From an uncultured bacterium (GTDB lineage Bacteria; Verrucomicrobiota; Verrucomicrobiia; Verrucomicrobiales; DEV007), in contig CAXBMO010000006.1 of assembly GCA_963977015.1 (NCBI GenBank), positions 160,001 to 224,000 on the forward strand: a DNA stretch of 64,000 bases, written 5' to 3'. The notes beneath the pieces are model-generated. The model searched no databases, was not told where the DNA came from, and saw nothing but the letters and a program-made list of their open reading frames with translations. A program made the translations under genes and the position numbers. How positions within the stretch are numbered: the stretch's first letter is position 1; each line of letters starts with the position of its first letter. Positions 1-43,781 of this stretch are shown here, piece by piece.

Positions 1-54
1 TCGAAGATGCCCGGTGCTGAGCATGTCGGGCAGGCAACCGCGCAGATGCACTAA
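1..54 (+). CDS. 3' end of upstream gene, probably alternative complex III subunit ActB (partial)
   Basis: Frame 1 is open to TAA at 52-54 (SKMPGAEHVGQATAQMH). Identity is inferred only from position directly before actC. Confidence 0.45.
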   Translation, partial: SKMPGAEHVGQATAQMH

Positions 55-69
55 TTTTTACTGACCCAG

Positions 70-1455
<1,386 letters not shown>

Positions 1456-1457
1456 CA

Positions 1458-2018
1458 TTGAGCGATTCCGAGAAATTAACCAGAGCCTGGGGCTATGTGG
1501 CGGAGTTCGAAAGCCCGAAAGCGGTTTTCGATGCTGCTAAAAAGTGTCGTGAAGAGGGATTTAAGCGATGGGATGTCCATTCGCCGTTCCCGATCCACGG
1601 GATGGATGCCGCGATGGGATTGGGGCCCTCCTACCTTTCAAAGTTCGTCTTCTGCGGAGGACTTTTTGGGACGTTGACAGCCCTGGCCCTCCAGTTTGGA
1701 ACGCAGGTTGGCCTTTATCCGACGATTGTTCAGAACAAGCCGGCGAACCTTTGGACGATACCGGCGTTCTTCCCAATCACGTTTGAGCTGACGATTCTGT
1801 TCGCCGCATTCACCATTCTTTTTGGCCTGTTGATCATCATCAAGCTGCCGAGACTTCATCATCCACTGTTTGGATCCAAGTCCTTCACCAAGTTTTCGGA
1901 CGACGGCTTCATTATCGCGATCGAAGCGCGGGATCCCAAATTCTCCAGGGAGAAAACCAAGGAGTTTCTCCTCTCCGTGGGAGCGACCGAAGTTGAACTC
2001 GTGGAGGAAGAACTCTGA
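1458..2018 (+). CDS. actD: Alternative complex III subunit ActD (DUF3341)
   Basis: DVHSPFPIHGMDAAMG and FFPITFELTILFAA motifs, two TM helices, follows actC. TTG start. Confidence 0.92.
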   Translation: MSDSEKLTRAWGYVAEFESPKAVFDAAKKCREEGFKRWDVHSPFPIHGMDAAMGLGPSYLSKFVFCGGLFGTLTALALQFGTQVGLYPTIVQNKPANLWTIPAFFPITFELTILFAAFTILFGLLIIIKLPRLHHPLFGSKSFTKFSDDGFIIAIEARDPKFSREKTKEFLLSVGATEVELVEEEL

Positions 2019-2034
2019 GACTTTTTTAGGAACA

Positions 2035-2733
2035 ATGCGCTGGTTTTTCCTCATTACTTTTCTATTTGCAGTCCTCTGGGTCGGCCTTTGGGGCTGGCAG
2101 GGACAGACGTCGACCAATAATCCGGTCGAGGTGTTCCAGGACATGGATCATCAATACAAACTGCGTCCCCAGAAGCAGAGCGACTTCTTTGCTGACGGAA
2201 TGGTCAGTCGCAAGCCGGTGGAAGGAACCGTTCCCATGGGATACGTGGTTCCGGACAAGGCGATTTCCAAAGGTGGAAAGACCGATCCCCGGCTTGGCTT
2301 GTCCAATGACTACTACAGCACGGGACTGATCGGAGAGTTTTTCGGCTCCGGATTCCCTGAAGGGATTGAGGTCAGTGAGGACTTGCTGGATCGCGGTGAG
2401 CAGCGATTTGATATCTATTGCAGCGTTTGTCACGGGATGAGCGGTTACGGGAAAGGGGTTGTCGCCTCGTTCTGGTTGGGAGGAACACTTCCGCCGACCG
2501 CGAATCTGATTGATCCGAGAGTTGCTGAAATGCCGGAGGGACAGATTTTCCACACCATCACCAACGGGAAAGGCCTGATGGGGCCTTATGGAGGAAATAT
2601 CCCGCCAAATGATCGCTGGGCGATTGTGGCCTATTTACGTGCTCTTCAATTGAGCCAGAAGGCAGATCTGAAAAATCCGAAGGTGAAGGCTGCCTTCGAT
2701 GCCGCAGCCCAGAGCACCGAATCTACTCAATGA
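2035..2733 (+). CDS. actE: Alternative complex III monoheme cytochrome c ActE
   Basis: ATG at 2035, N-terminal hydrophobic anchor, DMDHQYK..PQ..SDFFADG..SRKPVEGTV, CSVCH heme motif, GLMGPY, DRWAIVAYLRALQ. Confidence 0.92.
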   Translation: MRWFFLITFLFAVLWVGLWGWQGQTSTNNPVEVFQDMDHQYKLRPQKQSDFFADGMVSRKPVEGTVPMGYVVPDKAISKGGKTDPRLGLSNDYYSTGLIGEFFGSGFPEGIEVSEDLLDRGEQRFDIYCSVCHGMSGYGKGVVASFWLGGTLPPTANLIDPRVAEMPEGQIFHTITNGKGLMGPYGGNIPPNDRWAIVAYLRALQLSQKADLKNPKVKAAFDAAAQSTESTQ

Positions 2734-4280
2734 GCGCCCACAAATCTGTTAAAGACCTCCCGAAAGGTGGAGAAAAGATCGACGGCAGCAAGGTTGCTGG
2801 AGCCAAGATGTTGTTTGCCCTGCTTGGGGTGATCGGCTTGGGAGGTATCCTGATTGCTTTCTTCATGGACGGTGAAAGTCATGAAGACGTTGCCGACCAG
2901 GCATCCTATTCTTATTTGTTCGCCTTTACCTTTGCTCTCACTTTGGGAATGGGCGGTTTGTTTTGGACCATTCTGCATCACGCGACCAACTCGGGATGGG
3001 GGATTTCAGTCCGTCGCCAAATGGAGAACATCATGGGGCTGCTGCCGTGGGTGTTCGTGCTTTCGATTCCTTTTTGGATTCCCAGCATTCGCGAAGATCT
3101 CTGGGAGTGGGAAGCCAAGGCGGTAAAACTGAAGGCTGAGGCCGGGAAGCTTGTTTCAGGTCACCTTGCGACGGAAAATGCTGAGTGGTCCCATCAGGTA
3201 GAGGATCTCAAGGGAAAAATCGCCGAACGAAAGGCATTGCTCGGAAATCTTGAGACGGGTGGGGGCGTAACGCCCGGAGACCTTGAGGCGATCAAGGAAC
3301 AAAGCATCGATCTCGAAGCAAAACTCGCGGTGCTTGAATCTGAGAAGCCGAATGCGAAGTCGGTTCTCAAACACCTGATGAAAGTCGGTGATGAAGAGCA
3401 TGGTCTTCAGGGAGATACCCTTTTGACGGAGAAATGGTTCTTCTACTTTAAGGACACCAAATTGCGCCTCGTTCTCTACACGGTCATTTTCGTGCTGATC
3501 GTCTATCTTCTAAGAAGTTGGTCGATTCGAAACGATAAGATCGCCGGAGAGGACTTGTTCAAACGCTCTCGTTACTGGAGCTGCTTCTTCCTGATTCCGT
3601 TTGCGGCTGGCTACACCTTCATGGTGATCGATTTCCTCATGTCCCTGAACTACAAGTGGTTCTCGACCATGTGGGGAGTTTACCTGTTTGCCGGCGCCGC
3701 CCTCAATGGGATGGGACTGTTGGTAATTGTTATCACCTGGTTGCGCAGCAAGGGTTATCTGAAGGAAGTCGTCAGTGACGAGCACTATCACCTGATGGGG
3801 AAACTGATGTTTACCTTCTGTGTGTTCTGGGCCTACATCGCATTCAGTCAGTATTTCTTGATTTGGTATGCCAACATTACGGAAGAGACGGAATTCTTCC
3901 TCCTGCGGAACAGCGGCGAGTGGCGAACTGTGAGTATGGCCCTCGTGGTGGGACACTTCTTCATCCCGTTTGTGATTCTTCTATGGCGGGGTGTGAAGAA
4001 GAAGGCCCATTTGATTTGCACGGTAGCGGTTTGGAACCTGGTGATGCACGTTGTTGATGTTTACTGGATCGTGATTCCCGAGCGCGCACCGAGCCTGAGT
4101 GCCTTGGCTCATTCTAAAGAGCCTGTTCTCTGGTATCCAGGAGCTCTCCTCTTTGATCTTTTAGCCTTGGTCGGCGTTGTCGGTGTCTTGGGATACGTTC
4201 TCATCCACATCATTCAGAAATCGAGTCTCTACCCCTGTGGTGACCCTCGGTTGGAAGAGTCAATTAACGTTGTGAACTAG
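2730..4280 (+). CDS. actF: Alternative complex III subunit ActF (ActC paralogue)
   Basis: Polytopic, with WFSTMWGVY, HYHLMGKLMF, FWAYIAFSQYFLIWYANITEE and DVYW motifs. ATGA overlap with actE. Confidence 0.9.
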   Translation: MSAHKSVKDLPKGGEKIDGSKVAGAKMLFALLGVIGLGGILIAFFMDGESHEDVADQASYSYLFAFTFALTLGMGGLFWTILHHATNSGWGISVRRQMENIMGLLPWVFVLSIPFWIPSIREDLWEWEAKAVKLKAEAGKLVSGHLATENAEWSHQVEDLKGKIAERKALLGNLETGGGVTPGDLEAIKEQSIDLEAKLAVLESEKPNAKSVLKHLMKVGDEEHGLQGDTLLTEKWFFYFKDTKLRLVLYTVIFVLIVYLLRSWSIRNDKIAGEDLFKRSRYWSCFFLIPFAAGYTFMVIDFLMSLNYKWFSTMWGVYLFAGAALNGMGLLVIVITWLRSKGYLKEVVSDEHYHLMGKLMFTFCVFWAYIAFSQYFLIWYANITEETEFFLLRNSGEWRTVSMALVVGHFFIPFVILLWRGVKKKAHLICTVAVWNLVMHVVDVYWIVIPERAPSLSALAHSKEPVLWYPGALLFDLLALVGVVGVLGYVLIHIIQKSSLYPCGDPRLEESINVVN

Positions 4281-4287
4281 AATTTCG

Positions 4288-4878
4288 ATGAGTAAGCAAC
4301 TTCATCCCGCAGACAAACCACTTCTCAGACTCGGCGCCTATCTTGGCGGTTTCGTCGCCATTTTCGCTTTCGCTTTGTTGGGGCTCCTCATTGCCAAAGC
4401 TCCCGTTCGAAGCAGCGAACCTTCCTTTTCGGAGGAGACAGCCAATGCTCGGAAAGCGATCGCTGATAAAGTCAAGGCAGCAGATGTCGCTGCCCTTACC
4501 GAGCCGGAGTTGATTGATGAAGCTTCCGGGGTTGTTCGAATTCCGATTGCAGCGGCCAAAGACGTGGTTCTTGAAGAACTCCAGAGCCTGAAGCCGAAGA
4601 AGTCTGCCATTCCCCTTCCGGGTTCGGCTGCCGCAACCAAGCTCATGCAAGAGCAGTCCGCGCCGGCTCCAGCAGCCAAAGCTGAGCCAAAGGAGGAAGC
4701 GCCCAAGAAACCCAAGGCCAAACCACAAGCAGCGGAGAAGAAAACGCCTGCTGCTGCGGAGCCGAAGCAACCAAAGAAGCCTCAGCAAAAGCCGAAGGCG
4801 GACGCTGTGCCGACGGACGAGGCCAAGCCTGCTTCCAAGCCTGAAACTCCCGCGAAACCATCAAACCCGCAGGGTTAG
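4288..4878 (+). CDS. ActG-like single-pass membrane protein with Pro/Ala/Lys-rich tail
   Basis: One TM helix, IDEASGVVRIPIAAAK resembles the ActG GVVRIPI..A motif, lies after actF. Confidence 0.6.
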   Translation: MSKQLHPADKPLLRLGAYLGGFVAIFAFALLGLLIAKAPVRSSEPSFSEETANARKAIADKVKAADVAALTEPELIDEASGVVRIPIAAAKDVVLEELQSLKPKKSAIPLPGSAAATKLMQEQSAPAPAAKAEPKEEAPKKPKAKPQAAEKKTPAAAEPKQPKKPQQKPKADAVPTDEAKPASKPETPAKPSNPQG

Positions 4879-4883
4879 TTTTT

Positions 4884-6356
4884 ATGAGTTCCGATACCAA
4901 CGAAATCGATATTAACCTTCGCGCGCAGATTGATCGCTCACTGCGCTTTCCGTTGCTATTTTTCTTCACGAGCGCCGCTGTATGGTTGGTTTTCGGCACG
5001 GCGTTGGGGTTTGTCAGCTCCTTGAGCTTGAATTTCCCCGGCCTGTTTGAAGGATGCGCGTTCCTGTCCTACGGCCGGGTCTTTCCAGCTCAAATGAATG
5101 CGCTGGTATACGGTTGGGGAATGCAGGCCGGTTTTGGAGTCGCCCTGTGGATTATGGCTCGTTTGAGTCGCTCCACCTTGAAAAACCCGGCGACAGTCAT
5201 CGTCGCCGGCCATGTCTGGAATGCGATGATCCTGTTTGGCTTGTTCTCGATCCTTTTTGGTTGGGGGACTTCAATTATGTGGTTGGATTTTCCGAAGGCC
5301 TTCGCACCTGCCGTGGTCGGAACCTTTATCGTGATCATGATCTGGGCGTTGGGAATGTTTGCGGCACGCCGCGACCGCGAAGCCTACGTATCCCAATGGT
5401 ACATTCTCGCCTCTATTCTCTGGTTTCCTTGGATTTACCTCACCGCCAATTGGTTCATCCACATTGATGAAGGTGCGGCCGTGATCAAGGCTGGGATTGA
5501 TGCCTGGTATGTCAGCAACATGATTTACATGGTGCTCGCCCCAATCGCGTTGGCTTCTGCCTACTATATTGTTCCCAAGGTCATTGGTCGGCCGATCTAT
5601 AGCAACAGTATCGCAGTGTTTGGATTTTGGACGCTGGCGATTTTCGCCGGTTGGACGGGGATGAATCGAATCATGGGCGGGCCTCTTCCGGCTTGGATGC
5701 CCACCTTTGGAAGCGCCGCTGCCATATTCCTGCTCATTCCTGCGTTGGCAGTTGCCTTTAACCTGGTAAAGACGCTCGGTTCACGTTCGGATTGGATCAG
5801 CTACAGTCCTTCGTTGCGATTCACCATTTTCGGAGTCTTCGCCTTTGTCGTGACCGTGGCGCTCGGCGCGATCATGTCCATCTTCCCTGCCGGAAAGATC
5901 TTTCAATTCACTCATGCGCAGGCCGGCTACGACCTGCTCGCGGTATATGGGTTTTACTCAATGACCATTCTTGGTGCGATCTACTTTATCGTTCCCCGGA
6001 TTGTCGGTTGCGAGTGGATCAACGGGGGCTGGATTCGATTCCATTTCTGGTTTTCGGCCTATGGAACCATCGCCATTGTGGCGTTCATGGTGTTCGCCGG
6101 CATGGCCCAGGGTTACATCATCAACAACTGGGGAGAGGATTTCTTAACCTCCGTCGAACGAGGAAAGCCCTACTTGGCTTCGCTCTGTTTGGGATGGGGA
6201 CTCATCGTTATTTCAAACATCGCCTTCCTGTTTCACCTCGGTCTGATGGCGATTAAGCGCGGCCGAACCGATGAGGTCGGGCCGACCTTGATTCATAAAC
6301 AGCCAGAGGATTACTTTGCAGAAACAGAACTAAGCAAGGAAGGAGCAAACGCATGA
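4884..6356 (+). CDS. CcoN-like (cbb3 oxidase subunit I fold) membrane protein lacking the heme/CuB histidine ligands
   Basis: About 12 TM helices with CcoN landmarks (LSYGRVFP, YVSQWY, YYIVPK..GRPIYS, FW..IF..WTG, GAIYF..PR, HFW), but the ligand positions read Q, S, NR and Y-D-L. Confidence 0.8.
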   Translation: MSSDTNEIDINLRAQIDRSLRFPLLFFFTSAAVWLVFGTALGFVSSLSLNFPGLFEGCAFLSYGRVFPAQMNALVYGWGMQAGFGVALWIMARLSRSTLKNPATVIVAGHVWNAMILFGLFSILFGWGTSIMWLDFPKAFAPAVVGTFIVIMIWALGMFAARRDREAYVSQWYILASILWFPWIYLTANWFIHIDEGAAVIKAGIDAWYVSNMIYMVLAPIALASAYYIVPKVIGRPIYSNSIAVFGFWTLAIFAGWTGMNRIMGGPLPAWMPTFGSAAAIFLLIPALAVAFNLVKTLGSRSDWISYSPSLRFTIFGVFAFVVTVALGAIMSIFPAGKIFQFTHAQAGYDLLAVYGFYSMTILGAIYFIVPRIVGCEWINGGWIRFHFWFSAYGTIAIVAFMVFAGMAQGYIINNWGEDFLTSVERGKPYLASLCLGWGLIVISNIAFLFHLGLMAIKRGRTDEVGPTLIHKQPEDYFAETELSKEGANA

Positions 6357-7000
6357 ACAGTTTTCGCGGTTTCATTTTATGTTTAGGGGCAACTTTCGCC
6401 CTCCCTTGGATCTTCCTGATCGTGGTTCCTTTCAAGGCGACCTCCAATCTGGATGTCGTAGAGTTTGAGGTCGAAGGCGAGAAGGTGACCTATCCACCAG
6501 CGCGTGTCGGAGCCGTTCGCGGCGCGGAAGTTTATGCCAGGAATGGTTGCGCCTACTGCCATACACAGATGGTTCGGCCAACGTATGCCGGGACTGATAT
6601 GTGGAGACCCGGTTGGGCTGGAAGAGGGGGCGAGGAATCAACCCTGCGTTCCACCATCCCACAAGATTACCTTGGAGAGAAGTATGCTTATCTGGGAGCC
6701 TTGCGCCACGGACCTGATTTGAGCAACGTCGGTTGGCGGATCACCGACCGGAAATGGCACTACGAGCATTTGTATGATCCTCGCTCGATCAAACCGACAA
6801 CCATCATGCCGAGCTACCGCAACCTTTTCGAGAAACGCCGGGTGATTGGGCAGCTCTCCGCAGATGCGATCGAGACGTTTGAGAAGAATGGCGAAACCTG
6901 GGAAGTGGTTCCCAGCAATGACGCAAAGTCTCTGGTCGATTACTTGATGTCGCTGAAGAAGGACTTTCTCGTACCCGACAGTCTTGCAGCAACGAAATAA
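6353..7000 (+). CDS. ccoO: CcoO-like monoheme cytochrome c (cbb3 subunit II family)
   Basis: N-terminal TM, G..VY..NGCAYCHTQMVRP, G..RHGPDLSNVG, WHYEHLYDPR, IMPSY, LVDYLMSL. Confidence 0.85.
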   Translation: MNSFRGFILCLGATFALPWIFLIVVPFKATSNLDVVEFEVEGEKVTYPPARVGAVRGAEVYARNGCAYCHTQMVRPTYAGTDMWRPGWAGRGGEESTLRSTIPQDYLGEKYAYLGALRHGPDLSNVGWRITDRKWHYEHLYDPRSIKPTTIMPSYRNLFEKRRVIGQLSADAIETFEKNGETWEVVPSNDAKSLVDYLMSLKKDFLVPDSLAATK

Positions 7001-7774
7001 ATGGCGATGGACGAAGATCACAATCAGAACTTGGATTACGGCGAACGCTCAAGCGTTGCGGATTTGAACTCAGCGGTGAAGCGTGAAAAATCGGAGCCTA
7101 CCGCAGGGTTGGAGCCCGTTTCGATCTGGGCTTTCATCATTGCGGGATTGGTGATGGTCGCTGGCGGTGCCTACCTCGGCGCGTATTCAGCGGGTGGCTT
7201 GAGCATGAAGAACACTTACGCGGTTGCCAACTACGTTCCAGCGGAACGCCCGGTGCTTGAAGGATCTGTTGTGGTCGAGGATACGCGACCTTGGATTGAC
7301 AAGTGGATGGCTGGTGGGAAATCCGTCTATGCCACCTGTCAGGCTTGTCACCAGACCAACGGAAACGGGATGCCTGGCCAATTTCCTCCTCTTGGCGATT
7401 CAGAGTGGGTGGTGAACGGCACTGAACGACTTGGCGCAATCCTGTTTCCCGGGATTCAAGGGCCGATGAGCGTCAAAGGATCGACTTACAATGGGTTGAT
7501 GCCAGCCCAAGGCGCAATGTTAAGCGACAAGCAGATCGCACAGGTCATGACCTATATCCGCCGCAGTTTCGGAAATGATGCGTCTGTTGTGACGGAAGAA
7601 ATGGTGAAGAATGCGCGGGCCAAGTATGGTTCCCGAACCGCACCATGGTCCGAAGCAGAACTTCTGGAAATTCCTCAAGACGCGATGCTTCCGGGCGCTG
7701 AAGTTGATTTGCAGACAGGGGAGCCGTTGGGAGGCGGGGAATCTGGAGGTGACGAACCTGCATCGGACGTATAG
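7001..7774 (+). CDS. Membrane-anchored class I monoheme cytochrome c
   Basis: One TM helix, CQACHQ..G.GMPGQFPPL..SEWV, YNGLMPA Met ligand, IAQVMTYIR..FGN. Confidence 0.9.
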   Translation: MAMDEDHNQNLDYGERSSVADLNSAVKREKSEPTAGLEPVSIWAFIIAGLVMVAGGAYLGAYSAGGLSMKNTYAVANYVPAERPVLEGSVVVEDTRPWIDKWMAGGKSVYATCQACHQTNGNGMPGQFPPLGDSEWVVNGTERLGAILFPGIQGPMSVKGSTYNGLMPAQGAMLSDKQIAQVMTYIRRSFGNDASVVTEEMVKNARAKYGSRTAPWSEAELLEIPQDAMLPGAEVDLQTGEPLGGGESGGDEPASDV

Positions 7775-7838
7775 GATGCGTCCCGCTTGCCTCGAGATAC
7801 GAAACAAGTAAGCCTAGAAGAACAACCACCATTTTTTC

Positions 7839-9758
7839 ATGAGTTCGACGACCGAATCTGCTGCTGGCCACGGCCACGACGATCACGACCACCACGATCC
7901 TTCGTTCTGGCAGAAGTACATTTTTTCGACCGATCACAAGGTAATCGGAATCCAGTACGGAATCACCTCGCTGGTCTTCATGGCGTTTGGATTTTTCCTC
8001 ATGATGGTGATGCGATGGAGCATCGCGTATCCTGACCAACCACTTCCCCTGGTCGGGAACTGGCCGTTTTTCCGGAATTGGATTGGCGAAGACGGATTGG
8101 TGACTGGTGAGCTTTACAACATGTTTGGGGCCATGCATGGCACGATCATGGTGTTCCTGGCCGTGGTGCCTCTCGCGTTCGGGGCTTTCGGGAACTACGT
8201 GACTCCTCTGCAAATTGGAGCCCCGGATATGGCGTTTCCCCGCTTAAATATGGTGAGTTATTGGTCTTACCTGTTTGGCGGAATCTTGATGCTGACAAGC
8301 TTCTTCCTGACCTCTGGTGCCGCCAAGGTGGGTTGGACAAACTACTCACCGCTCGCCACCACGACAGACCTTCATTTCCGCGATAAGTTCTGGACCGGGC
8401 AAACCCAGTGGCTCGTTGCGATGGTCTTCTTGATCAGCTCGTCACTGTTGGGCGCGGTCAATTTCATCACCACCATCATCAACCTCCGTGCGCCGGGAAT
8501 GACCTGGTTTCGGATGCCCTTCTTCTGCTGGGCACAGTTGGTGACCGCCTTTCTCCTGCTGCTCGCGTTCCCGCCACTGGAAGTGGCCGCAGTGATGCAG
8601 CTGATGGACCGTCTTGCCGGAACCAGTTTCTTCGTCCCGACCGGATTGGTCGTTGGAGGATCGCTCTTTGATTCTGCCGGCGGCGGTAGTCCGTTGCTCT
8701 ATCAGCACCTGTTCTGGTTTTTGGGACACCCGGAGGTTTACGTTTTGATCCTACCAGCGATCGGAATTGTTTCGGAAGTTGTCGTCAACAATACCCGAAA
8801 GCCTCTCTGGGGGTATCGGACCATGGTCGGAGCCGTGATGGTGCTCGGATTTCTGAGCTTTATCGTATGGGCCCACCACATGTATCTCACGGGAATGGGG
8901 ACCGCGATATCGACGTTCTTCCAAACCACGACGGTGCTCATTTCTGTTCCGTCGGTGATACTGATCACCTCCCTCCTCATTTCGATGTGGGGTGGTTCGA
9001 TCCGCTTCACGATGCCCATGCTCTGGGCGACCGCTTTCATTCCCATGTTCGGAATTGGAGGTCTTACCGGGTTGCCTCTGGCGTTTAACCTCATCGATCT
9101 TCACCTTCACGATACCTACTACGTCATCGGGCACTTCCATTACGTCGTCGCGCCGGGAACCATTTTCGGGCTGTTTGCCGGCATCTACTATTGGTTTCCA
9201 AAACAGACGGGGAGACAGATGAACAAACTCCTCGGCCACCTCCATTTTTGGCCATCGCTCATCTGTATGAACCTGATTTTCGCGCCGATGTTTATTCAGG
9301 GCATGTCAGGAATGCACCGCCGAGCGTTTGATGGCGGGGCTGCCTACGAGCAGATCGCAAGTCAGGTTTACTTGGGAGCGGATCATCCGTTGGCAAGAAT
9401 GTTCAATGCCTTCTTCAAGAACGGTGCCCACCTACCCGTCGAGGTGATTGACCTGAACCTGGTGACCTCTTTTGGGGCGTTCGTCCTCGCCTTGGCTCAG
9501 ATCCCATTTGTGGTGAATTTCTTCTGGAGCATGTTCAAAGGAGGGAAGAGCACCGAGCGCAATCCCTGGCAGGCAACTACCTTGGAGTGGGCCTGCCCAA
9601 CGCCTCCTCCTCACGGGAATTTTGACAAGGACCCGGTGGCTTATCGCGATCCTTACGAATACAGTGTGCCTGGAGCTGAGTCAGACTACACTCCACAGTT
9701 TGAGCCTGATCCAGCCGAGGTTACCGAACCTGAAAAGAAGGATGCTGCGGCTTCCTAG
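7839..9758 (+). CDS. ctaD: A-family heme-copper oxidase subunit I
   Basis: STDHKVIG, MHGTIMVF, GAPDMAFPRLN, YQHLFWFLGHPEVY, WAHHM, LHDTYYVIGHFHYV, GMHRR, NPW..TTLEW. All six His ligands are present. Confidence 0.97.
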   Translation: MSSTTESAAGHGHDDHDHHDPSFWQKYIFSTDHKVIGIQYGITSLVFMAFGFFLMMVMRWSIAYPDQPLPLVGNWPFFRNWIGEDGLVTGELYNMFGAMHGTIMVFLAVVPLAFGAFGNYVTPLQIGAPDMAFPRLNMVSYWSYLFGGILMLTSFFLTSGAAKVGWTNYSPLATTTDLHFRDKFWTGQTQWLVAMVFLISSSLLGAVNFITTIINLRAPGMTWFRMPFFCWAQLVTAFLLLLAFPPLEVAAVMQLMDRLAGTSFFVPTGLVVGGSLFDSAGGGSPLLYQHLFWFLGHPEVYVLILPAIGIVSEVVVNNTRKPLWGYRTMVGAVMVLGFLSFIVWAHHMYLTGMGTAISTFFQTTTVLISVPSVILITSLLISMWGGSIRFTMPMLWATAFIPMFGIGGLTGLPLAFNLIDLHLHDTYYVIGHFHYVVAPGTIFGLFAGIYYWFPKQTGRQMNKLLGHLHFWPSLICMNLIFAPMFIQGMSGMHRRAFDGGAAYEQIASQVYLGADHPLARMFNAFFKNGAHLPVEVIDLNLVTSFGAFVLALAQIPFVVNFFWSMFKGGKSTERNPWQATTLEWACPTPPPHGNFDKDPVAYRDPYEYSVPGAESDYTPQFEPDPAEVTEPEKKDAAAS

Positions 9759-9794
9759 CTCGCAGAACGCAGTCTAGTGACAAGATAGAATAAG

Positions 9795-11294
9795 ATGGAA
9801 ATTCCATACACCGTCAATCCCCGTCGCGATACGGGCCTCTTCAATGCAAAAGTTGGCATCTGGCTGTTTTTGGCATCAGAGGTGATGCTCTTTGGGGGAT
9901 TGTTCTCCGCCTACATATTCCTGCGCACCGGCGTTCGTGAAGGCGTTGATATTCCTTGGCCGAACGGACTCGACGTCCATGGCTGGATGTACTGGATCGG
10001 GTTCATCAACACCCTGATTTTGATTGCCTCGAGTGTGTTCGTCGTCATGGCGTGGGCGCAACTCAAGCTTCGGAATTACGGCAAGTATCAGCTCTACATG
10101 GCTGGCGTGTTGATCTGTTCCGCTCTCTTCATGGTCAACAAGGGCTATGAATACAACTCCAAGCTGAATCATCACTTCGGCATCTATCTCACGGATGGGA
10201 CGCTTCTGGATGGTGCCCTCGTTAAGGATGAAAAGCATGGCATCAAGGGCGACGAAATTGTTTTCCAGGCCGATGAGGTGGATTTTGCCTTGGTTGGGAC
10301 TGGTGTGTTTGGAAAGGCCGATCCCTACTTCCTCGATTTCGCAGAGAACAAGGATCTGACCTATGACATCCAACTCTTCAAAGCGGAGTCGGCGGATGGA
10401 AAACTGGAGTTCGTGGAAGGCGAAATGAAGTCAGGTTTGTCGGCCGACCTTATCCCCGGCGTGCTTGATGTTCATATTGCGGAGTTGGAGAAAGCGGCTG
10501 CGGCAGATGCCGTCGAGCGGAAGAAGGCTTTGAAGCAGAAGATTCGCGAAGCTGAGGGAGCTGCAAAGATTGCCCTTCAGAGGGAATTGGCTCTGCTCCG
10601 TCCCATCAAGATTCCAGGCAAGGTCGTTGGAAAGCCTTCCGAGCCTGCCAACTACGTATTTAAGCGGAAGGAAATTTTGGGCGGTAAGCCAGGCAAGGAA
10701 TCGATCGCATTTTTCCGCGGCAATGGGCTGCGGGGAACCTTGGTTGATGACACCGTGGATATCGAGGTTCACACCATCGATCTTCAAATGGTGGCGGTGG
10801 ATACCGAATCGATGGCCTGGGGCAATGACATTTGGTCTCATGGCGAAGGCGAGGCGATGAAAGAAGGCTACCTCCATCACAAGGCGGAAGCGGAAGAGCA
10901 CTACCGGGAATTCATTCAGCAAGGGTATTTCCCGGCTGACAAGATTTACCGCTGGCATCACGCACATGCGGCTCACTCCAAAGCCGAGACCGGAGGAGAG
11001 GACAGCCACAGCGAGTATTCAGTCGTTTCTGTTCCCGGTGATCAGGTGAGAAGGATGGGGAACCATGGACCCAAGTTTGGCCCTTACTATGCAATTTACT
11101 TCACGATGACGGCCTTACACGGACTTCACGTGGTTGGTGGAGCGATTGTGCTTGGCTATTTCCTCTTCTTTGGTCGGAAGCTCTACAAGAAGAATCCTGA
11201 ACACCTTGCCAACCGCGTCGAGGTTGGAGGTTTGTTCTGGCACTTTGTGGATCTGGTTTGGATCTTCCTCTTCCCGCTCTATTATCTCCTTTAA
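9795..11294 (+). CDS. ctaE: Heme-copper oxidase subunit III with large soluble insertion
   Basis: GIWLFLASEVMLFGGLFSAY, NTLILIASS, YFTMTALHGLHV, GLFWHFVDLVWIFLFPLYYL. About 300 extra residues in the middle. Confidence 0.92.
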   Translation: MEIPYTVNPRRDTGLFNAKVGIWLFLASEVMLFGGLFSAYIFLRTGVREGVDIPWPNGLDVHGWMYWIGFINTLILIASSVFVVMAWAQLKLRNYGKYQLYMAGVLICSALFMVNKGYEYNSKLNHHFGIYLTDGTLLDGALVKDEKHGIKGDEIVFQADEVDFALVGTGVFGKADPYFLDFAENKDLTYDIQLFKAESADGKLEFVEGEMKSGLSADLIPGVLDVHIAELEKAAAADAVERKKALKQKIREAEGAAKIALQRELALLRPIKIPGKVVGKPSEPANYVFKRKEILGGKPGKESIAFFRGNGLRGTLVDDTVDIEVHTIDLQMVAVDTESMAWGNDIWSHGEGEAMKEGYLHHKAEAEEHYREFIQQGYFPADKIYRWHHAHAAHSKAETGGEDSHSEYSVVSVPGDQVRRMGNHGPKFGPYYAIYFTMTALHGLHVVGGAIVLGYFLFFGRKLYKKNPEHLANRVEVGGLFWHFVDLVWIFLFPLYYLL

Positions 11295-11297
11295 GTC

Positions 11298-11720
11298 ATG
11301 GCAAGTTCACCCGAAGAAATTCGTAAACACATCAACACCTACTGGAAGGTTGGTGCCGCGCTCTGCGTGTTCACCTGCATCACCCTTGCGCTGGGGATTT
11401 GGCATCCGTTTGATTTTGGTTTTCCCGGTGTCGACACCATCGATATTGTTGTGGGTTTGTTGGTCGCCACCATCAAAACCAGCTTGGTGATGCTGATCTT
11501 CATGCACTTGAACCACGAGCGGGGTTTGATCTACAAGACCCTCCTGTTCACCGTTGCGTTCGCCATTAGTTTGATGGGCCTCTCGTTGTTTGCGAAGGCT
11601 GACCCGATCAAAGCGCATTCCGATGTTACGGTAAAAGTGGACCGCGAAGGCGAGAAGGAACGTATTATTGGTAGTGCGAACCAACCTCACTCCGATTCGA
11701 CGAAGGAGAGTTCCCACTAA
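11298..11720 (+). CDS. ctaF: Prokaryotic cytochrome c oxidase subunit IV
   Basis: Three TM helices, VATIKTSLVMLIFMHL motif, directly after subunit III. Confidence 0.88.
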   Translation: MASSPEEIRKHINTYWKVGAALCVFTCITLALGIWHPFDFGFPGVDTIDIVVGLLVATIKTSLVMLIFMHLNHERGLIYKTLLFTVAFAISLMGLSLFAKADPIKAHSDVTVKVDREGEKERIIGSANQPHSDSTKESSH

Positions 11721-11747
11721 GGAAACACCCATCCGAAACTTCCAACC

Positions 11748-11951
11748 ATGAGTCTGAAGCAATTCCATGTCTTTTTCATCACACTAGCAGTGCTCTGCAC
11801 GTTTAGTTTTGGTGTTTGGGCACTCTTTGCTCCATCAGACATCGTGGGAACATGGGGAAGAGTGGGTGGTTTCTTAAGCGCCGCCATCGGAGTTGCCCTG
11901 GTTCCTTATGGCATCTGGTTCGTCCGGAAATCGAAGAACATCATCACGTAA
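11748..11951 (+). CDS. Small two-TM hypothetical protein in oxidase operon
   Basis: 67 aa, MSLKQFHVFFI start, two hydrophobic helices, co-oriented within the operon. Confidence 0.7.
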   Translation: MSLKQFHVFFITLAVLCTFSFGVWALFAPSDIVGTWGRVGGFLSAAIGVALVPYGIWFVRKSKNIIT

Positions 11952-11983
11952 TCGCACGCGGCCACCCCTGACCTATACTTCCC

Positions 11984-12184
11984 ATGGACCTTCTTAATTT
12001 AGATACCATTCTAGCCTGTCCCGCTTGCCGGTTTAATGACTCCAGTGTAACCCAGGCCGCCAATCTTGCGATCGGGGTCATGGTGATGGTGGTTTTTGGA
12101 GTTCTCAGTGCCTTCATAGCCTTTATTGTCAAACTAGCAAAGGGCGAGCGCGCTGTAGCCGCCGTGGAAACACGCCAGCATTAA
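11984..12184 (+). CDS. Small membrane protein with CPAC motif
   Basis: 66 aa, LACPAC near the N-terminus followed by one TM helix, directly before subunit II. Confidence 0.7.
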   Translation: MDLLNLDTILACPACRFNDSSVTQAANLAIGVMVMVVFGVLSAFIAFIVKLAKGERAVAAVETRQH

Positions 12185-12225
12185 TTGTGTGAGACTGGCT
12201 GGGAAGCCTCAATTGATTTAGTAAA

Positions 12226-13020
12226 ATGGATCCTATTCTTGGTTTTAGTATTAACGAACTTCTTGGACAGCCTGAGTTGGCTTCAAAGCATGGTGGTCAG
12301 ATCGATCACATGCTGGAAGTCGTTCACTGGTTCATGGCCATTCTCGGAATTGGATGGACCATTTTCTTTTTCACCGTTCTCTTCAAATTCAACAAGAGGG
12401 CGAATCCGGCGGCAAGTTACAAGGGAGTAACCTCGCATTTTACGACCCACCTTGAGGTGCTGGTTGTGATTGTCGAAGTCGTTCTGCTCTTGGGTTTCGC
12501 GTTTCCACTCTGGGCCAAGCGCGTTGAGGACATTCCGAGCGAGGACGATCCCAATGTGGTGCGAGTCCGTGCTGTCGGAGAGCAATTCCGATGGAATTTT
12601 CATTATGCAGGAGCTGACGGTCGTTTTGGTTTGGTCAAGCCGGAGAACATCAACGGGACCAATCCTGTTGGTTTGGTCAACGCCGATCCGAATGCCTTTG
12701 ACGACTTCCTCGCGAACGAGCTGATCTTGCCAAAGGATCGGATGTGTATTGTTCAGGTATCCTCCAAAGACGTCATTCATAACCTGGCGCTGATCCCCAT
12801 GCGGATTCAGCAGGACGCGATTCCAGGAATGGAGATTCCGATGTATTTCACCCCAACCAAGACCGGTCGTTGGGACATTGTTTGTGCCCAGCTCTGTGGT
12901 GCAGGCCATGCCAAAATGGTCGCCTTTCTGGACGTTCAGGAACAAGAGGAGTTTGATTCATGGTTTACCCAGAAAACCGAATCTGCTGCTGCCAAGGCAA
13001 CCGCTGCGGCTGCCCAGTAG
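12226..13020 (+). CDS. ctaC: Cytochrome c oxidase subunit II (CuA), no fused cytochrome c
   Basis: Two TM helices, QFRWNFHY, SKDVIH, DAIPG, CAQLCGAGHAKM CuA motif. No CxxCH. Confidence 0.95.
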   Translation: MDPILGFSINELLGQPELASKHGGQIDHMLEVVHWFMAILGIGWTIFFFTVLFKFNKRANPAASYKGVTSHFTTHLEVLVVIVEVVLLLGFAFPLWAKRVEDIPSEDDPNVVRVRAVGEQFRWNFHYAGADGRFGLVKPENINGTNPVGLVNADPNAFDDFLANELILPKDRMCIVQVSSKDVIHNLALIPMRIQQDAIPGMEIPMYFTPTKTGRWDIVCAQLCGAGHAKMVAFLDVQEQEEFDSWFTQKTESAAAKATAAAAQ

Positions 13021-13113
13021 TCTTTTCGTTGGGGATGAGACGGCCCGGGAACTCCTGGGGCTGACACTCATGATCCAAACCCGCGCGAGGCATGATGCTC
13101 GGGCTGTTGAACT

Positions 13114-14112
13114 ATGTCTCTCGTCCTCAGAACTGCTCAAGTAGCGCTCGTTTCGGTCATCGTGCTCGTCTTTGTCGGCGCGATTGTGAGGTCATCCGGC
13201 GCTGGATTGGGATGCCCTGATTGGCCGACTTGCTGGGGACGCATCATTCCTCCCACCAAAGCGGAGCAGATCGATCCGGAGAAGCTGGACATTCCCAGAT
13301 TCAAGCGATACGCGGAGCGCCACGGCATCGACCCCGACACGGTTGAGCGAGAATCGGTTCTGGGTAGCTTCAATGCGGTTCACACTTGGACGGAGTTCAT
13401 CAATCGTCTCACATCGTTGCCCTTGGGGGTATCGACCCTGCTCCTGGCCATCTTCTCGTTTCGGGCAAGCCGTCATCGCAAGTGGGTAGTCGCCTTGGCT
13501 TGGTTTGCCCTCCTCGATGTTCTCTTCAATGCGTGGATGGGGGCCGAAGTCGTCCGCAGTGGATTGAAGCCGGGCATCATCACCCTTCACATGGCGCTCG
13601 CATTGCTGCTGATCTGTGTGCTGGTCACCATCACATGGTTGTCCCGCACCCCAAAGGTGTTGGACATTGGTGAAACCCGCCATCTCCGATGGGTGTCGCT
13701 TCTCTTTTTCGTCTGTCTCTTCGCGGAAGGCATCTTCGGGAGCCAGGTGCGCGAAATGACCGACCAACTGGCCAAAGCGGCTGGAGATATGCCGCGAAGT
13801 GAGTGGATTGGCGCGCTTGCCTCCACCTCCATTTACCAGATTCACCGGAGCTTTTCGTGGTCACTGCTCGTTTCCGCCGGAGCCGTGTTCTGGCTTGCCC
13901 GGCGCAGCAGGAGCGGCGCTGAGGCTTGGGAGCCCAAAGTGATCCTTGGAATCGTTCTCGCCATGATGTGCATGGGAATCATTCTCGCCCACGTTGCGAT
14001 TTATCCCGTCGTTCAGGTCCTCCACGTTGGACTCACCGCAATTTTGCTTGCCGTAACCTGGAAATGGGTGCTGGAAGTCTTATCCGCCCCACGCCATGAG
14101 CACTCCATCTGA
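13114..14112 (+). CDS. ctaA: Heme A synthase (COX15/CtaA)
   Basis: GAGLGCPDWPTCWG, WTEFINRL, LHM, IHRSFS, LHV motifs. Confidence 0.9.
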   Translation: MSLVLRTAQVALVSVIVLVFVGAIVRSSGAGLGCPDWPTCWGRIIPPTKAEQIDPEKLDIPRFKRYAERHGIDPDTVERESVLGSFNAVHTWTEFINRLTSLPLGVSTLLLAIFSFRASRHRKWVVALAWFALLDVLFNAWMGAEVVRSGLKPGIITLHMALALLLICVLVTITWLSRTPKVLDIGETRHLRWVSLLFFVCLFAEGIFGSQVREMTDQLAKAAGDMPRSEWIGALASTSIYQIHRSFSWSLLVSAGAVFWLARRSRSGAEAWEPKVILGIVLAMMCMGIILAHVAIYPVVQVLHVGLTAILLAVTWKWVLEVLSAPRHEHSI

Positions 14113-14974
14113 TATTCCTTCTCGCGCCGATCTCGTCGAGCTCACCAAAGCTCGGTTGAGCATCATGGTGGTCGTGACAACGGGGGCCGGCTTCATCTCC
14201 GGTTGGCCTGACGAGACGCCATTCCATTTCGCGCTTCTGTTTCACACCGTTTTTGGAACGATTTTGTCCGCCTTTGGCGCCGCCGTCTTCAATCAGCTGA
14301 TGGAGATTCAGGCCGACAAGAAGATGAAACGCACGGCAGACCGGCCGTTGCCTGCGGGGCGCATTCCGCCGGCTGGTGCGTTTGTGATTGGTTGGGTGTT
14401 GTCCGCCTTTGGCGTGGTTCACCTCGGTGTCAAAGTCAATACCTGGGCCGCGGTCATCGCCGGCCTTACGTTGGTGGTTTACATCTTCATCTACACGCCC
14501 CTCAAGCGCCGTTCGAGTTGGAACACGATTGTCGGCGCGGTCGCGGGTGCGCTTCCTCCGGTGATCGGCTGGGTTGGAGCGGGCCGGGGCTTGGATGCTG
14601 GAGCACTCTGGTGGTTTGCCCTGCTGTTCTTTTGGCAGCTTCCCCACTTCTTCGCCATCAACTGGATTTACCGGGAAGAGTATCAGAAAGGGGGCTTCAT
14701 CATGTTGGCCAATCAGGATGACGATGGGAGCAAGACATCGCGTTGGGCGCTCATCTTTGCCGTCTCGTTGGTGCTGCTGGCGTTCGTTGCACCCGTGGCT
14801 GAAATCACGCGGTGGTGGTTTGTCTTTCCCGGAGCCCTTGCGGCGGGATGGCTCGTGATGCTGTCGCTCAAGTTCGTCAAAACGCCCGAACGTTCGACCG
14901 GACGCCGTCTCTTTTTCGGGACCTTGATCTATCTGCCGATCGTGCTTGTTGCAGCGCTGCTCGCGAAGCCGTAG
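14096..14974 (+). CDS. ctaB: Protoheme IX farnesyltransferase (heme O synthase)
   Basis: ELTKARL, DKKMKRTADRPLPAGRI, YTPLKR, GALPPVIGW, FWQLPHF, YREEY. Confidence 0.95.
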   Translation: MSTPSDIPSRADLVELTKARLSIMVVVTTGAGFISGWPDETPFHFALLFHTVFGTILSAFGAAVFNQLMEIQADKKMKRTADRPLPAGRIPPAGAFVIGWVLSAFGVVHLGVKVNTWAAVIAGLTLVVYIFIYTPLKRRSSWNTIVGAVAGALPPVIGWVGAGRGLDAGALWWFALLFFWQLPHFFAINWIYREEYQKGGFIMLANQDDDGSKTSRWALIFAVSLVLLAFVAPVAEITRWWFVFPGALAAGWLVMLSLKFVKTPERSTGRRLFFGTLIYLPIVLVAALLAKP

Positions 14975-14985
14975 CATGGTTGGCG

Positions 14986-15498
14986 ATGGAGCCATTCGAA
15001 CTCAATACGGAGCGCCTCCAATTGCGTCACCTCGGCTTGGACGACTTTGACGCGATGCGCGAGATCCAGGGCGACGACGAAACGATGAGTTTCTACGGTG
15101 GTGCGTTTTGTTCCGAGAAAACCACGAACTGGATCGAACGAAGTCTCGCTTCCTACGCAGAAAACGGATTTGGGCTCTGGGCCGTCATTCATCGCCAGGA
15201 AGCGCGCTTGGTGGGGCTGTGCGGAATCACCTATCAACTTATCGATGGGGAGCAAATCCCCGAAATCGGTTATCAGTTCAATCGCAACTATTGGGGGCGG
15301 GGTCTCGCCACGGAAGCGGCGATCGCCTGTCGAGATCATGGATTCACGGAACTGCGCTTCCCGAGGTTGGTGTCGTGGATGGCGCCGGACAACTTTCCCT
15401 CCCGCCGGGTCGCCGAACGTGTCGGAATGACGATGTGGAAGGAAGTCATCAATTCCAAAACCGGAACTCCCCATGTGGTCTACGCGATCGAGCCATGA
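14986..15498 (+). CDS. GNAT N-acetyltransferase (RimJ/RimL family)
   Basis: ATG at 14986, TERLQLR, GFGLWAV, EIGY...YWGRGLATEAA, N.PSRRVAERVGM. Confidence 0.9.
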   Translation: MEPFELNTERLQLRHLGLDDFDAMREIQGDDETMSFYGGAFCSEKTTNWIERSLASYAENGFGLWAVIHRQEARLVGLCGITYQLIDGEQIPEIGYQFNRNYWGRGLATEAAIACRDHGFTELRFPRLVSWMAPDNFPSRRVAERVGMTMWKEVINSKTGTPHVVYAIEP

Positions 15499-15505
15499 CC
15501 GCGAC

Positions 15506-36569: not shown

Positions 36570-36719
36570 AGACACCCCAAGCGCTGATTTCCGGGTTGCT
36601 TCATCCTCCCGCATCGTTAACAATCCGCCAACACTCACAAACATCCCAATCCGCCCTGGTGGATTGACCTTTTTAGAAACCTTCCAAGGTACGTTCACGC
36701 GCACCCTCAACCTAGCCTT

Positions 36720-38660: not shown

Positions 38661-39932
38661 TCAACCCGCCATTTCCAATCCCGCCAGGGTTCCGGTTCCG
38701 CTGGCGAATTTGTCCGCCTCGATCCCGAGCCGCTGAAGCATGCTGACGAATAACCTGGGCAATGCCTCATTGCGCGCCTGGTCGAATGCCAGATGTTGAC
38801 CATGTTTGAATCCGCCTCCGGCGAGCAGGATGGGCATGTTCTTCGTGTCGTGATTGTTCCCGTTGCCGAGGTTGCTGCCGTAAAGAACCATCGTCCGGTC
38901 CAGCAGCGGCCGGCCCCCGTCGTTGGTATCGCGGAGGCGCTTGAGCAGGCCGCCGAACGCCCGGAACTGGGCCAGTTCCAGATTCATGAGTTCCTTCAGC
39001 TTGTCCTCGCGCCCGACATGGTGGGAGAGGTTGTGGCTCTCGGTCGAGACGCCGGGGATGTGCGCCGAAAAGCCGTCGAGCTTGATGAGGAGGCTGATGA
39101 GGCGGGTCGAATCGGTCGCGAGCGCGAGGTGGATGAGGTCGTAGATCGTGGTGAGTTTGTCAGGGAGATACTCCGCGTCCGTCAGCGGTGGGACATCGAC
39201 CTTTGGCTTGGGTCTACGCTCCCATTCCTCGGCGATCTCCAGCCTGCGCTCGACTTCGCGGACCGAGGTAAAGTACTGGTCGAGTCGCTCCTTGTCGGCT
39301 TGGCCGAGCTTCTGTTGAAGCTCAGTCGCACGATGGGCGACGGTGTCCAGAATGCTGCGCCCGACGCGAAGATCATGAATCTGACGCTCGATCTCGGCCT
39401 CGGCGCCGGCAAAGAAGAGTGTCTTGAAAACGGCGGCCGGGCTGTTCTCTGCCGGGATCATCACGCCGCTGGAGGTGAAGGAGAGCGATTGATTCGTGCG
39501 CCTTTTGGCGACGACCAGCGGTAGGGCCGAGACCCGGGTTTGCTCCCCAATGTGGTCAGCCGCGAACTGGTCCAACGAGATGGAGTTGCGAAACGAAGCC
39601 GAGCCCGGGTGGGGGGCCGCGGTGAGGAACGTGGCCTCCGCAGAGTGGCCGCCGGTGACATTGGGATGCGAGCAACCGGAAATGACGGTGAAGTCGTCGC
39701 GGTAGTCGGCCAGCGTTTGGAGATAGGCGGGCAGGGCGTAGTCGGGGCCGCTCTGTTCGGGCACGAAGTGGCGGCTGAGGATGCCGAGATTCGTGTTGAT
39801 CGCGACGATCCGGCGGGGGACATCGCCAGCCGCTGCCGAAGCGCGCGCCGGGAGCATTGCCTCCAGAAACGGCAGGCCGAGTGCGACACCGGAGGCGCGG
39901 AGGAAGGTTCGGCGGTTGAGTGGGGTCTTCAT
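38661..39932 (-). CDS. DUF1552 family protein (Tat-exported)
   Basis: NRRTFLR.SGVALGLPFLEAM, SISLDQ, DKERLDQYFTSVREVE, HNLSHH, LLDRTMVLYGS, NNH..NMPILLAGG. Confidence 0.92.
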   Translation of the reverse strand: MKTPLNRRTFLRASGVALGLPFLEAMLPARASAAAGDVPRRIVAINTNLGILSRHFVPEQSGPDYALPAYLQTLADYRDDFTVISGCSHPNVTGGHSAEATFLTAAPHPGSASFRNSISLDQFAADHIGEQTRVSALPLVVAKRRTNQSLSFTSSGVMIPAENSPAAVFKTLFFAGAEAEIERQIHDLRVGRSILDTVAHRATELQQKLGQADKERLDQYFTSVREVERRLEIAEEWERRPKPKVDVPPLTDAEYLPDKLTTIYDLIHLALATDSTRLISLLIKLDGFSAHIPGVSTESHNLSHHVGREDKLKELMNLELAQFRAFGGLLKRLRDTNDGGRPLLDRTMVLYGSNLGNGNNHDTKNMPILLAGGGFKHGQHLAFDQARNEALPRLFVSMLQRLGIEADKFASGTGTLAGLEMAG

Positions 39933-43776: not shown

Positions 43777-43781
43777 GGGGA

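Follow-up and report, generated by a model that had tools for sequence, protein, structure and literature searches.

A ligand-free CcoN homologue encoded between alternative complex III and an aa3 oxidase in Verrucomicrobiales is probably reused as a structural adaptor

Loss of the cofactor ligands in a CcoN-like protein

The window analysed here, a stretch of 64,000 nucleotides from an uncultured bacterium of the Verrucomicrobiales (GTDB lineage DEV007; GenBank assembly GCA_963977015.1, contig CAXBMO010000006.1, positions 160,001 to 224,000 of the forward strand), carries at positions 4884-7774 three consecutive genes that are best explained as the remains of a cbb3-type oxidase. All three are read from the + strand. 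They encode a CcoN-like protein without cofactor ligands (4884..6356), a CcoO-like monoheme cytochrome c with an N-terminal hydrophobic segment (6353..7000) and a membrane-anchored, c552-like monoheme cytochrome c (7001..7774), and they lie between the genes of alternative complex III (ACIII) and those of an aa3 oxidase. The sequence comparisons presented below suggest that the CcoN-like protein has probably been reused as a structural adaptor between these two other respiratory complexes.

The 490-aa CcoN-like protein matches PF00115 (E 6.1e-41) and, in a phmmer search against the PDB, CcoN of Pseudomonas stutzeri (3mk7_A, residues 28-436, E 4.4e-30); all five PDB matches were cbb3 subunits. 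Its score for the equivalog model TIGR00780, 121.2 bits, is below the cut-off of 583.15. In the 3mk7_A alignment the P. stutzeri ligands of heme b, heme b3 and CuB, H60, H207, H257, H258, H345 and H347, stand opposite Q70, S211, N261, R262, Y349 and L351, respectively, and 0/6 His are kept. A first-pass annotation of the locus had described a CcoN scaffold with all six His replaced, had placed the changes at nucleotides 5091, 5505-5519, 5652-5669 and 5925-5936, and had proposed an alignment to P. stutzeri CcoN as a check. Counted from 4884, these sites fit the residues named above, and the alignment returned the same six substitutions and one more, the replacement of the cross-linked Tyr: A255 of the CcoN-like protein stands opposite Y251 of P. 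stutzeri and Y267 of the intact CcoN of Opitutaceae bacterium TAV1.

The same picture was obtained when 28 members of the CcoN-like family (A1) were aligned by hhalign with 12 intact verrucomicrobial and planctomycete CcoN sequences (A4). The two families aligned with a probability of 100 (E 3e-119, 469 columns, 32 % identity), practically without gaps across every ligand region, and the six substitutions were identical to those found by phmmer. A shift in the register of the His ligands was considered as well and rejected, because no His is found at shifted positions in the alignment to the intact relatives. When the 3mk7_A alignment was read by hand, the proton-channel and active-site residues T215, S240, H243 and E323 of P. 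stutzeri were found opposite A219, A244, G247 and L327, and the Ca-site residue E122 opposite M132. A crude hydropathy scan gave no clean resolution of helices. The sequence rules out canonical binding of heme b, heme b3 or CuB by this protein; with the ligand sets for all three gone, O2 reduction in the normal way would be excluded, as the first-pass annotation had argued.

The fate of the ligand positions was followed in 78 sequences, comprising the window protein and 77 orthologues. His was found at neither the H345 nor the H347 position (0/78 each) and only once at the H207 position (1/78), Tyr was never found at the position of the cross-linked residue (0/78), and variation at the former ligand positions was free. 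The H60 position, Gln in the window protein, is still His in 56/78 of these close sequences, so the statement that every His site is replaced is true of the window protein and not of the whole subfamily. At the former CuB His258 position, Arg or Lys is present in 68/78 (Arg262 in the window, 5667-5669), an acidic residue, Asp or Glu, stands between the former H345 and H347 in 62/78 (Asp350 in the window, 5931-5933), and opposite charges occur jointly at the two positions in 58/78. Arg262 and Asp350 may form a buried ion pair occupying the old binuclear site.

Other positions at which His is frequent are 110 (71/78), 344 (44/78) and 387 (78/78). Together with the His retained at the H60 position in most close orthologues, these residues are what could be cited for a CcoN-like protein that is still a redox enzyme, holding heme or metal through non-canonical ligands. 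We regard this as very unlikely: H60 is replaced by Gln in the window protein itself, His is never found at the partner ligand position H347 or at the H345 position, and His344 and His387 stand opposite non-ligand His of intact CcoN. Moreover, in 127 degenerate full-length representatives of the wider clade described below, the only ligand-capable residues present at a column in at least 40 % of the sequences are His387 (76 %), His at position 50 (61 %) and Met360 (58 %).

Retention of the CcoN-like gene by selection

A scan of the genomes of species representatives revealed 435 relatives, and the best 80 loci, all from Verrucomicrobiales according to their titles, were analysed. The CcoN-like frame is uninterrupted in all 80, in 77 by open reading frame (ORF) call and in three more which contain N bases. 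A word-indexed search, in which 8000 candidates were scored, gave 844 relatives at E <= 1e-5, of which the best 120 are 46-91 % identical and 461-519 aa long. Within the 78-sequence comparison, 77 positions of the CcoN-like protein show conservation of at least 95 %.

Against the closest locus, the non-synonymous divergence (dN) of the CcoN-like gene is 0.050, in comparison to 0.028 for ctaD, 0.099 for the ccoO-like gene and 0.307 for the gene of a 196-aa protein upstream; for actC, measured against the next-closest locus, it is 0.050. The synonymous divergence (dS) is about 1.7-3.8 or undefined, that is, saturated even for the three closest loci, and therefore absolute dN/dS values are unreliable and only dN and its rank among the neighbouring genes can be used. 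Median identity to the window proteins over the 80 loci is 49 % for the CcoN-like protein, 46 % for the CcoO-like protein, 46 % for the cytochrome c, 47 % for ActF and 40 % for CtaE; CtaD (75 %) and ActC (76 %) both lie above the CcoN-like protein.

The loss of every catalytic residue would in itself suit a decaying pseudogene kept by chance, and the first-pass annotation had named a decaying copy as a case that would overturn its view of a dead CcoN kept as a membrane scaffold. We give the pseudogene practically no credence and have rejected it. It is contradicted by the open frames in 80/80 species-level loci, by a dN as low as that of core subunits (dS being saturated), by a median identity over the 80 loci that exceeds that of CcoO-like, ActF and CtaE, and by the depth of the clade, which comprises hundreds of clusters at 50 % identity. 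The open frames, the low dN and the 77 highly conserved positions argue instead for retention by selection.

A wider clade of degenerate CcoN homologues

The loss of ligands extends well beyond these loci. When 1.84 billion cluster representatives were searched with a profile, 2646 matched at E <= 1e-3, and 555 of these reached E <= 1e-30. Among the best 150 of the 555, none of the six His is retained in 76, one in 51, two in 15, three in 3, four in 1, five in 1 (a fragment) and all six in 4, which means that 142/150 retain 0-2 of the six. The names attached to members of these clusters are Verrucomicrobiales, Verrucomicrobiae, Limisphaerales, Pedosphaera and Opitutales, with one partial member labelled Binatia; the intact representatives include Telmatocola sphagniphila and Burkholderiales proteins.

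Two FastTree reconstructions placed the intact sequences differently: with 4 intact rows they fell on one side of a branch, and with 40 intact rows they were nested among degenerate groups. As these trees conflict, reliance was placed on a constraint test in IQ-TREE with 63 rows, in which 12 intact sequences and P0137, an Opitutales representative, were held apart from 50 degenerate ones. The constrained tree exceeded the result of the free search by 75 in log-likelihood (p-AU 0.95). This test thus prefers a single degenerate clade and does not reject it, though it gives no proof of one.

P0137 keeps the four heme ligands, has lost two CuB His and the Tyr, and was placed among intact CcoN of the Opitutales type. 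In its best 120 relatives, Opitutaceae bacterium TAV1 included, all six His and the Tyr are kept in 114, and partial loss is seen in 6/120, some of which are without the Tyr only or without one CuB His. These partial losses in the Opitutales-type group may represent early stages of the same decay, reached independently, or else errors in the sequences.

Positions that reach 80 % conservation in the 127 degenerate full-length representatives hold almost exclusively Gly, Pro, Trp, Phe or Tyr. They are common to the intact relatives and therefore represent a signature of the fold and not a new site. This bears on the idea that an independent, non-redox role in the membrane preserved the fold, such as an ACIII-coupled proton or ion path, a gas or redox sensor, or a heme/copper chaperone for aa3 assembly. 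Such a function would account for the strong conservation of the 12-helix protein, for the Arg/Lys and Asp/Glu residues of opposite charge at the old binuclear positions and for the invariant His387. It nevertheless appears rather improbable, since the canonical channel residues, read by hand, are now Ala, Gly and Leu, the conserved positions are those shared with intact relatives, members of the wider clade do not generally have the Arg/Asp pair, and His387 is found in real CcoN too.

The partner cytochromes

The CcoO-like protein matches PF02433 FixO at 73.9 bits (cut-off 29.6) and TIGR00781 at 71.5, under the equivalog cut-off of 200.65. Its CAYCH motif and Met152 align with those of the CcoO chain 8smr_F, and one CxxCH is present in 79/79 orthologues. 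A weak match to SoxX (E 4.2e-7) remained below the cut-off. The axial Met is kept in 64/80 aligned sequences. The loci in which it has become Cys, 11 of 79 orthologues, are L057, L065, L068, L070-L073, L075, L077, L078 and L080, and an extra mono- or di-heme cytochrome c gene lies just upstream of the CcoN-like gene in 10/11 Cys loci, in comparison to 1/63 Met loci. Since the Cys loci are related (Luteolibacter-type), the change from Met to Cys together with the extra cytochrome may be one event.

The third protein carries a CQACH motif and matches PF00034 (E 8.5e-10). In the PDB it came closest to a Cu nitrite reductase, by way of that enzyme's cytochrome c domain (1.5e-18), and to Thermus cytochrome c552 (1.1e-17); the match to CcoP reached only 8.6e-7, and TIGR00782 scored 32.5 against a cut-off of 179.95. 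CcoP is a diheme protein with two c-heme domains behind an N-terminal anchor, and the third protein, with its single CxxCH (one in 75/75 orthologues), is not diheme. Cytochrome c552 serves as an electron donor to a CuA oxidase. Met167 of the third protein is invariant in 25 sequences.

The three genes are tightly packed. The stop of the CcoN-like gene and the start of the CcoO-like gene overlap as ATGA at 6353-6356, and the third gene begins on the next base after the second (TAA/ATG at 7000/7001). Both junctions had been noted in the first-pass annotation, along with the intact c-heme motifs and the Met ligand of the CcoO-like protein, and all of these observations hold. Its further proposal, that the dead CcoN serves to hold two c-heme proteins at the membrane, fared less uniformly: the two c-heme partners stand, and, since both are self-anchored, their attachment to the membrane cannot fully explain why a 12-helix protein was kept.

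Organization of the operon and other genes of the window

All genes of the cluster lie on the + strand, act genes first and cta genes after them, in the layout of an operon of ACIII with an A-type oxidase. The first is actC (70..1455), encoding the NrfD-type quinol-binding membrane subunit of ACIII (PF03916 NrfD, E 6.7e-22), followed by actD (1458..2018; PF11821 ActD, E 1.8e-58) and by the gene of the monoheme cytochrome c ActE (ORF 1870..2733; PF13442/PF00034, residues 173-259). The listed ActE ORF begins at a TTG 150 bases inside actD, and its cytochrome domain starts from about residue 173; the orthologues have a median length of 217 aa, and the true start is therefore probably downstream of the TTG. 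One CxxCH is present in the window ActE and in 58/59 orthologues. The next gene (2730..4280) encodes a polytopic membrane protein without a Pfam or NCBIfam match, which is regarded as a putative ActF from its position, the ActA-F order being that of PMC5928083. ActB and ActA (about 255 aa) are encoded upstream in related loci, ActA itself falling outside the window.

Between the ActF-like gene and the CcoN-like gene lies that of the 196-aa protein (4288..4878), whose translation has one N-terminal hydrophobic segment and a tail rich in Lys, Pro and Ala. Pfam and NCBIfam scans gave no family match for it, and its Atlas neighbours are verrucomicrobial hypothetical proteins. It is poorly conserved, with a tblastn match in 3/80 loci and a dN of 0.31-0.47. 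The slot itself holds an ORF of 129-408 aa in 55/60 loci, with one or two CxxCH motifs in 10 loci.

Downstream of the module, ctaD (7839..9758) encodes subunit I of an aa3 oxidase (1ar1_A, E 6.2e-125) with all ligands present, as every ligand motif of the Paracoccus denitrificans subunit is retained (HG, GHPEVY, AHHMY, GHFHYV). It is followed by ctaE (9795..11294) for subunit III (PF00510), ctaF (11298..11720) for subunit IV (PF03626, E 3e-10; TIGR02229 above cut-off), ctaC (12226..13020) for subunit II (PF00116), whose CuA motif is CAQLCGAGHAKM and which lacks a cytochrome c domain, ctaA (13114..14112) for heme A synthase (PF02628, E 6.7e-45) and ctaB (14096..14974) for heme O synthase (TIGR01473, 247 bits, above the cut-off of 210). 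At 499 aa CtaE is unusually long; its best COX3-domain stretch covers only residues 431-497, and the orthologue median is 492 aa. No ccoGHIS-type genes were found among the window ORFs scanned. A promoter and terminator scan of positions 1-15600 gave weak matches within genes only and was uninformative on operon structure.

Gene order was compared in the best 80 of the 435 loci, a biased sample in which only the loci with enough contig could be counted. Wherever the contig suffices the order is constant: ActA-F, a small variable gene, CcoN-like, CcoO-like, monoheme cytochrome c, and the aa3 genes. Downstream of the CcoN-like gene, the CcoO-like gene is kept in 77/77 loci with room, CtaD in 67/67 and CtaC in 57/57; upstream, ActF is found by tblastn in 60/60 and ActC in 54/54. 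The cytochrome c is kept in 70/72 when judged by best hit, and the other two, L078 and L080, have a weaker downstream match. The position of the module between ACIII and an intact aa3 oxidase, as first described from the window alone, thus recurs at every related locus long enough to show it, and the act and cta neighbours, whose co-occurrence with His loss had been suggested as a check, are invariant where there is room among the 80 loci.

Three other regions of the window were noted. At 15473-18445 two overlapping ORFs of 979 aa lie on opposite strands, the one on the - strand matching an SNF2-related helicase and the one on the + strand no family. A two-partner secretion (TPS) pair occupies 31590-38492, with a 1659-aa TPS-domain protein followed by a ShlB/FhaC-type transporter. 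The region 38661-47106 contains a protein cluster typical of the Planctomycetes-Verrucomicrobia-Chlamydiae group (DUF1552, PSCyt/PSD domains, DUF1501), which fits a genome of the Verrucomicrobiota/Planctomycetota type.

Proposed role between ACIII and the oxidase

ACIII clusters often precede oxidase clusters, as stated in the relevant passage of Sousa et al. 2018 (PMC5928083). The same paper, where it treats the transfer of electrons to the oxidase, describes two solutions: in Rhodothermus marinus ActE faces the cytochrome c domain carried by subunit IIc in the caa3 oxidase, and in Flavobacterium johnsoniae an extra cytochrome c domain on ActA takes over that role. Neither was found, in the window or, for ActA, in related loci. 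The cytochrome c domain on subunit II is absent from the window CtaC, as the first-pass annotation had pointed out, and from its orthologues (no CxxCH in 60/60, the CuA motif being present in 58/60). The extra domain on ActA is absent in related loci, five CxxCH motifs being counted in 49/50 of those reaching that far; in L003 the ActA ORF was not called. Since both CtaC and the ActA of related loci are without a bridging heme, there would be a gap that the cytochromes of the module would fill.

We propose that the ligand-free CcoN-like protein is a docking or positioning module through which ACIII electrons would be relayed via two c hemes to CuA, an assignment that, on the sequences at hand, stands about an even chance of being right. 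The catalytic subunit would have given up two hemes, CuB, the cross-linked Tyr and the proton-channel residues while retaining its 12-helix fold. It would lie beside the membrane arm of ACIII, the aa3 oxidase or both, holding in place the heme c of the CcoO-like protein and that of the c552-like cytochrome, and electrons would pass from the heme wire of ActA and ActE through these two hemes to the CuA of CtaC without a soluble carrier. O2 would then be reduced by the aa3 oxidase alone. The ancestor was likely an ACIII-cbb3 operon, whose oxidase would have become redundant once an aa3 oxidase took over. Such an origin fits a review that, in its passage on gene neighbourhoods, places a C-type oxidase beside ACIII in Opitutaceae and in verrucomicrobial methanotrophs (PMC8498564), the source on which the ACIII adjacency of intact relatives is based.

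Besides the loss of ligands, the purifying selection, the large degenerate clade, the constant gene order and the need for a bridge, the proposed relay is favoured by the intact CtaD in the same operon and by the resemblance of the third protein's heme domain to Thermus c552. A 706-aa sequence of the wider clade, P0233, in which a CcoN-like domain with 1/6 His is fused to a FixO/CcoO domain, was counted on the same side. Long fused CcoN-like forms (859-2450 aa) were also searched for and none was found, which is weak evidence.

Several observations weigh against the proposal. Each of the two cytochromes has its own hydrophobic N-terminal segment, and therefore no scaffold is needed for mere membrane anchoring. 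Of the 80 aligned CcoO-like sequences, 11 have Cys in place of the axial Met, 3 have Ser and 1 has Lys, a poor fit in those lineages to a simple high-potential wire. In the passage of PMC5928083 on R. marinus, ActE is reported as the direct donor to caa3, so that there is no obvious need for additional carriers, although in that system the electrons are taken up by the fused cytochrome c, which is missing here. P0233 comes from one 3.9-kb contig and could be a read-through artefact, the FastTree placements of intact and degenerate groups conflict, and the gene context covers the 80 best of the 435 genome hits, all Verrucomicrobiales. Finally, an exploratory partial Mantel (mirror-tree) test on residual distances in 47 taxa showed no residual covariation between the CcoN-like and CcoO-like proteins (-0.11, p 0.90). 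The same test also gave weak support to the proposal, since the CcoN-like protein covaried with ActD (0.40), ActF (0.34) and ActC (0.28), the CcoO-like protein with the cytochrome c (0.53), and ActE with CtaC (0.34); the known contact pair ActC-ActF fails (-0.12), which means that the test discriminates poorly.

These results could also reflect a subunit with a purely structural or assembly task in ACIII or in an ACIII-aa3 supercomplex, that is, a spacer, a lipid-facing brace or an assembly factor, with the cytochromes working on another route, either a branch to a different acceptor or an input from a periplasmic donor. The covariation of the CcoN-like protein with ActD, ActF and ActC and not with the CcoO-like protein would agree with this, as would the self-anchored cytochromes, the weak SoxX match of the CcoO-like protein and the hint of a different redox role given by Cys for the axial Met with the extra upstream cytochrome c. 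We nevertheless consider this alternative unlikely, in view of the ATGA overlap and the next-base start of the cytochrome gene, the co-occurrence of the three genes wherever the contig allows, and the gap left for these cytochromes by CtaC and ActA without a bridging heme.

In its most far-reaching form, the docking and relay proposal would make this 'ghost cbb3' a stoichiometric component of the core of an ACIII/ghost-cbb3/aa3 megacomplex in Verrucomicrobiales, docked on ActC, ActD and ActF, with the two c hemes as the sole bridge to CuA and a whole old clade of subunit I homologues turned cofactor-free. This extended version is offered tentatively, as an arrangement that the sequences permit and that we think somewhat doubtful.

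Annotation and significance

Clade members are named 'cbb3-type cytochrome c oxidase subunit I' or 'hypothetical protein' in NCBI and JGI records, and the expectation that pipelines would call the CcoN-like protein a cbb3 oxidase is therefore borne out. No description of a ligand-less CcoN was found in the full-text literature, as far as the available portions of the sources extend; an 'unknown group' in the C-family tree of Muntyan 2015, to which PMC5492636 refers, might overlap the clade. Sousa et al. 2011, the source of a standard classifier, discarded sequences without the six His in building their heme-copper oxidase (HCO) database (PMC3084760). A 2024 survey by Murali et al. describes the six His as 'completely conserved' outside gNOR in its passage on ligands (PMC11214002), and file 4 of its supplement lists two Akkermansiaceae genomes with 2 and 1 'C' sequences, from which it cannot be told whether the relic is included. 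Genome papers, in their passages on respiration, accept the cbb3 annotation at face value (PMC13608581, PMC6688271).

The six His have thus been treated as defining the superfamily, and a large selected clade without them would extend the known uses of the fold. Microaerobic, high-affinity respiration inferred from gene names in Verrucomicrobiota may be wrong for this clade. If the megacomplex is real, genome and metagenome surveys that call a 'cbb3 / high-affinity oxidase' in these lineages would be in error, the module would be a third, unrelated solution to the bridging of ACIII and oxidase, and it would provide the first case of the catalytic subunit of a respiratory oxidase retained as a pseudo-enzyme. 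The hand-off from ACIII differs between the two solved cases, and the operon predicts a third arrangement. Intact, partly degenerate and ligand-free members also form a natural series for the conversion of a redox enzyme into a scaffold.

Comparison with known systems

The module resembles the cbb3 oxidase CcoNOP(Q) of P. stutzeri (PDB 3mk7/5djq) in the homologous fold of subunit I (residues 28-436), in a ccoN-ccoO pair with overlapping stop and start, in a monoheme CcoO with an N-terminal hydrophobic segment and in a third, membrane-anchored c-type cytochrome. It differs in that the window protein lacks the cross-linked Tyr and every ligand of heme b, heme b3 and CuB, in the replaced channel and active-site Glu residues, in a monoheme third subunit that resembles c552 more closely than the CcoP chains in solved cbb3 structures, and in scores far under the NCBIfam equivalog cut-offs. 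The nearest intact relatives are the verrucomicrobial and planctomycete CcoN proteins (Opitutaceae bacterium TAV1, Telmatocola sphagniphila) of the same phylum or superphylum. The intact Opitutales-type CcoN has the six His and the Tyr in 114/120 of the best P0137 relatives, whereas the window protein has none of them.

Extra CcoN genes outside a full cco operon are known from Pseudomonas aeruginosa, as described in the relevant part of bioRxiv 10.1101/171538. According to the same part, and unlike the situation here, an orphan subunit supports biofilm growth and virulence.

With the ACIII-caa3 system of R. marinus and the ACIII-aa3 system of F. johnsoniae the locus shares an act cluster followed by an A-type oxidase cluster. 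In the account of these two systems in PMC5928083, the ActA/ActE heme wire delivers electrons to the oxidase with no soluble carrier in between. R. marinus has the bridging c heme as a fusion to subunit II and F. johnsoniae as a fusion to ActA; here it is fused to neither, as judged from the window CtaC and the ActA of related loci. Unlike both systems, the present locus has three extra genes between act and cta, among them a 12-helix oxidase relic. The gNOR family provides a parallel for the replacement of active-site His in a subunit I homologue. In gNOR, however, a single His has become Asp and the enzyme is proposed to be still catalytic, whereas in the present family all or nearly all of the ligands are gone.

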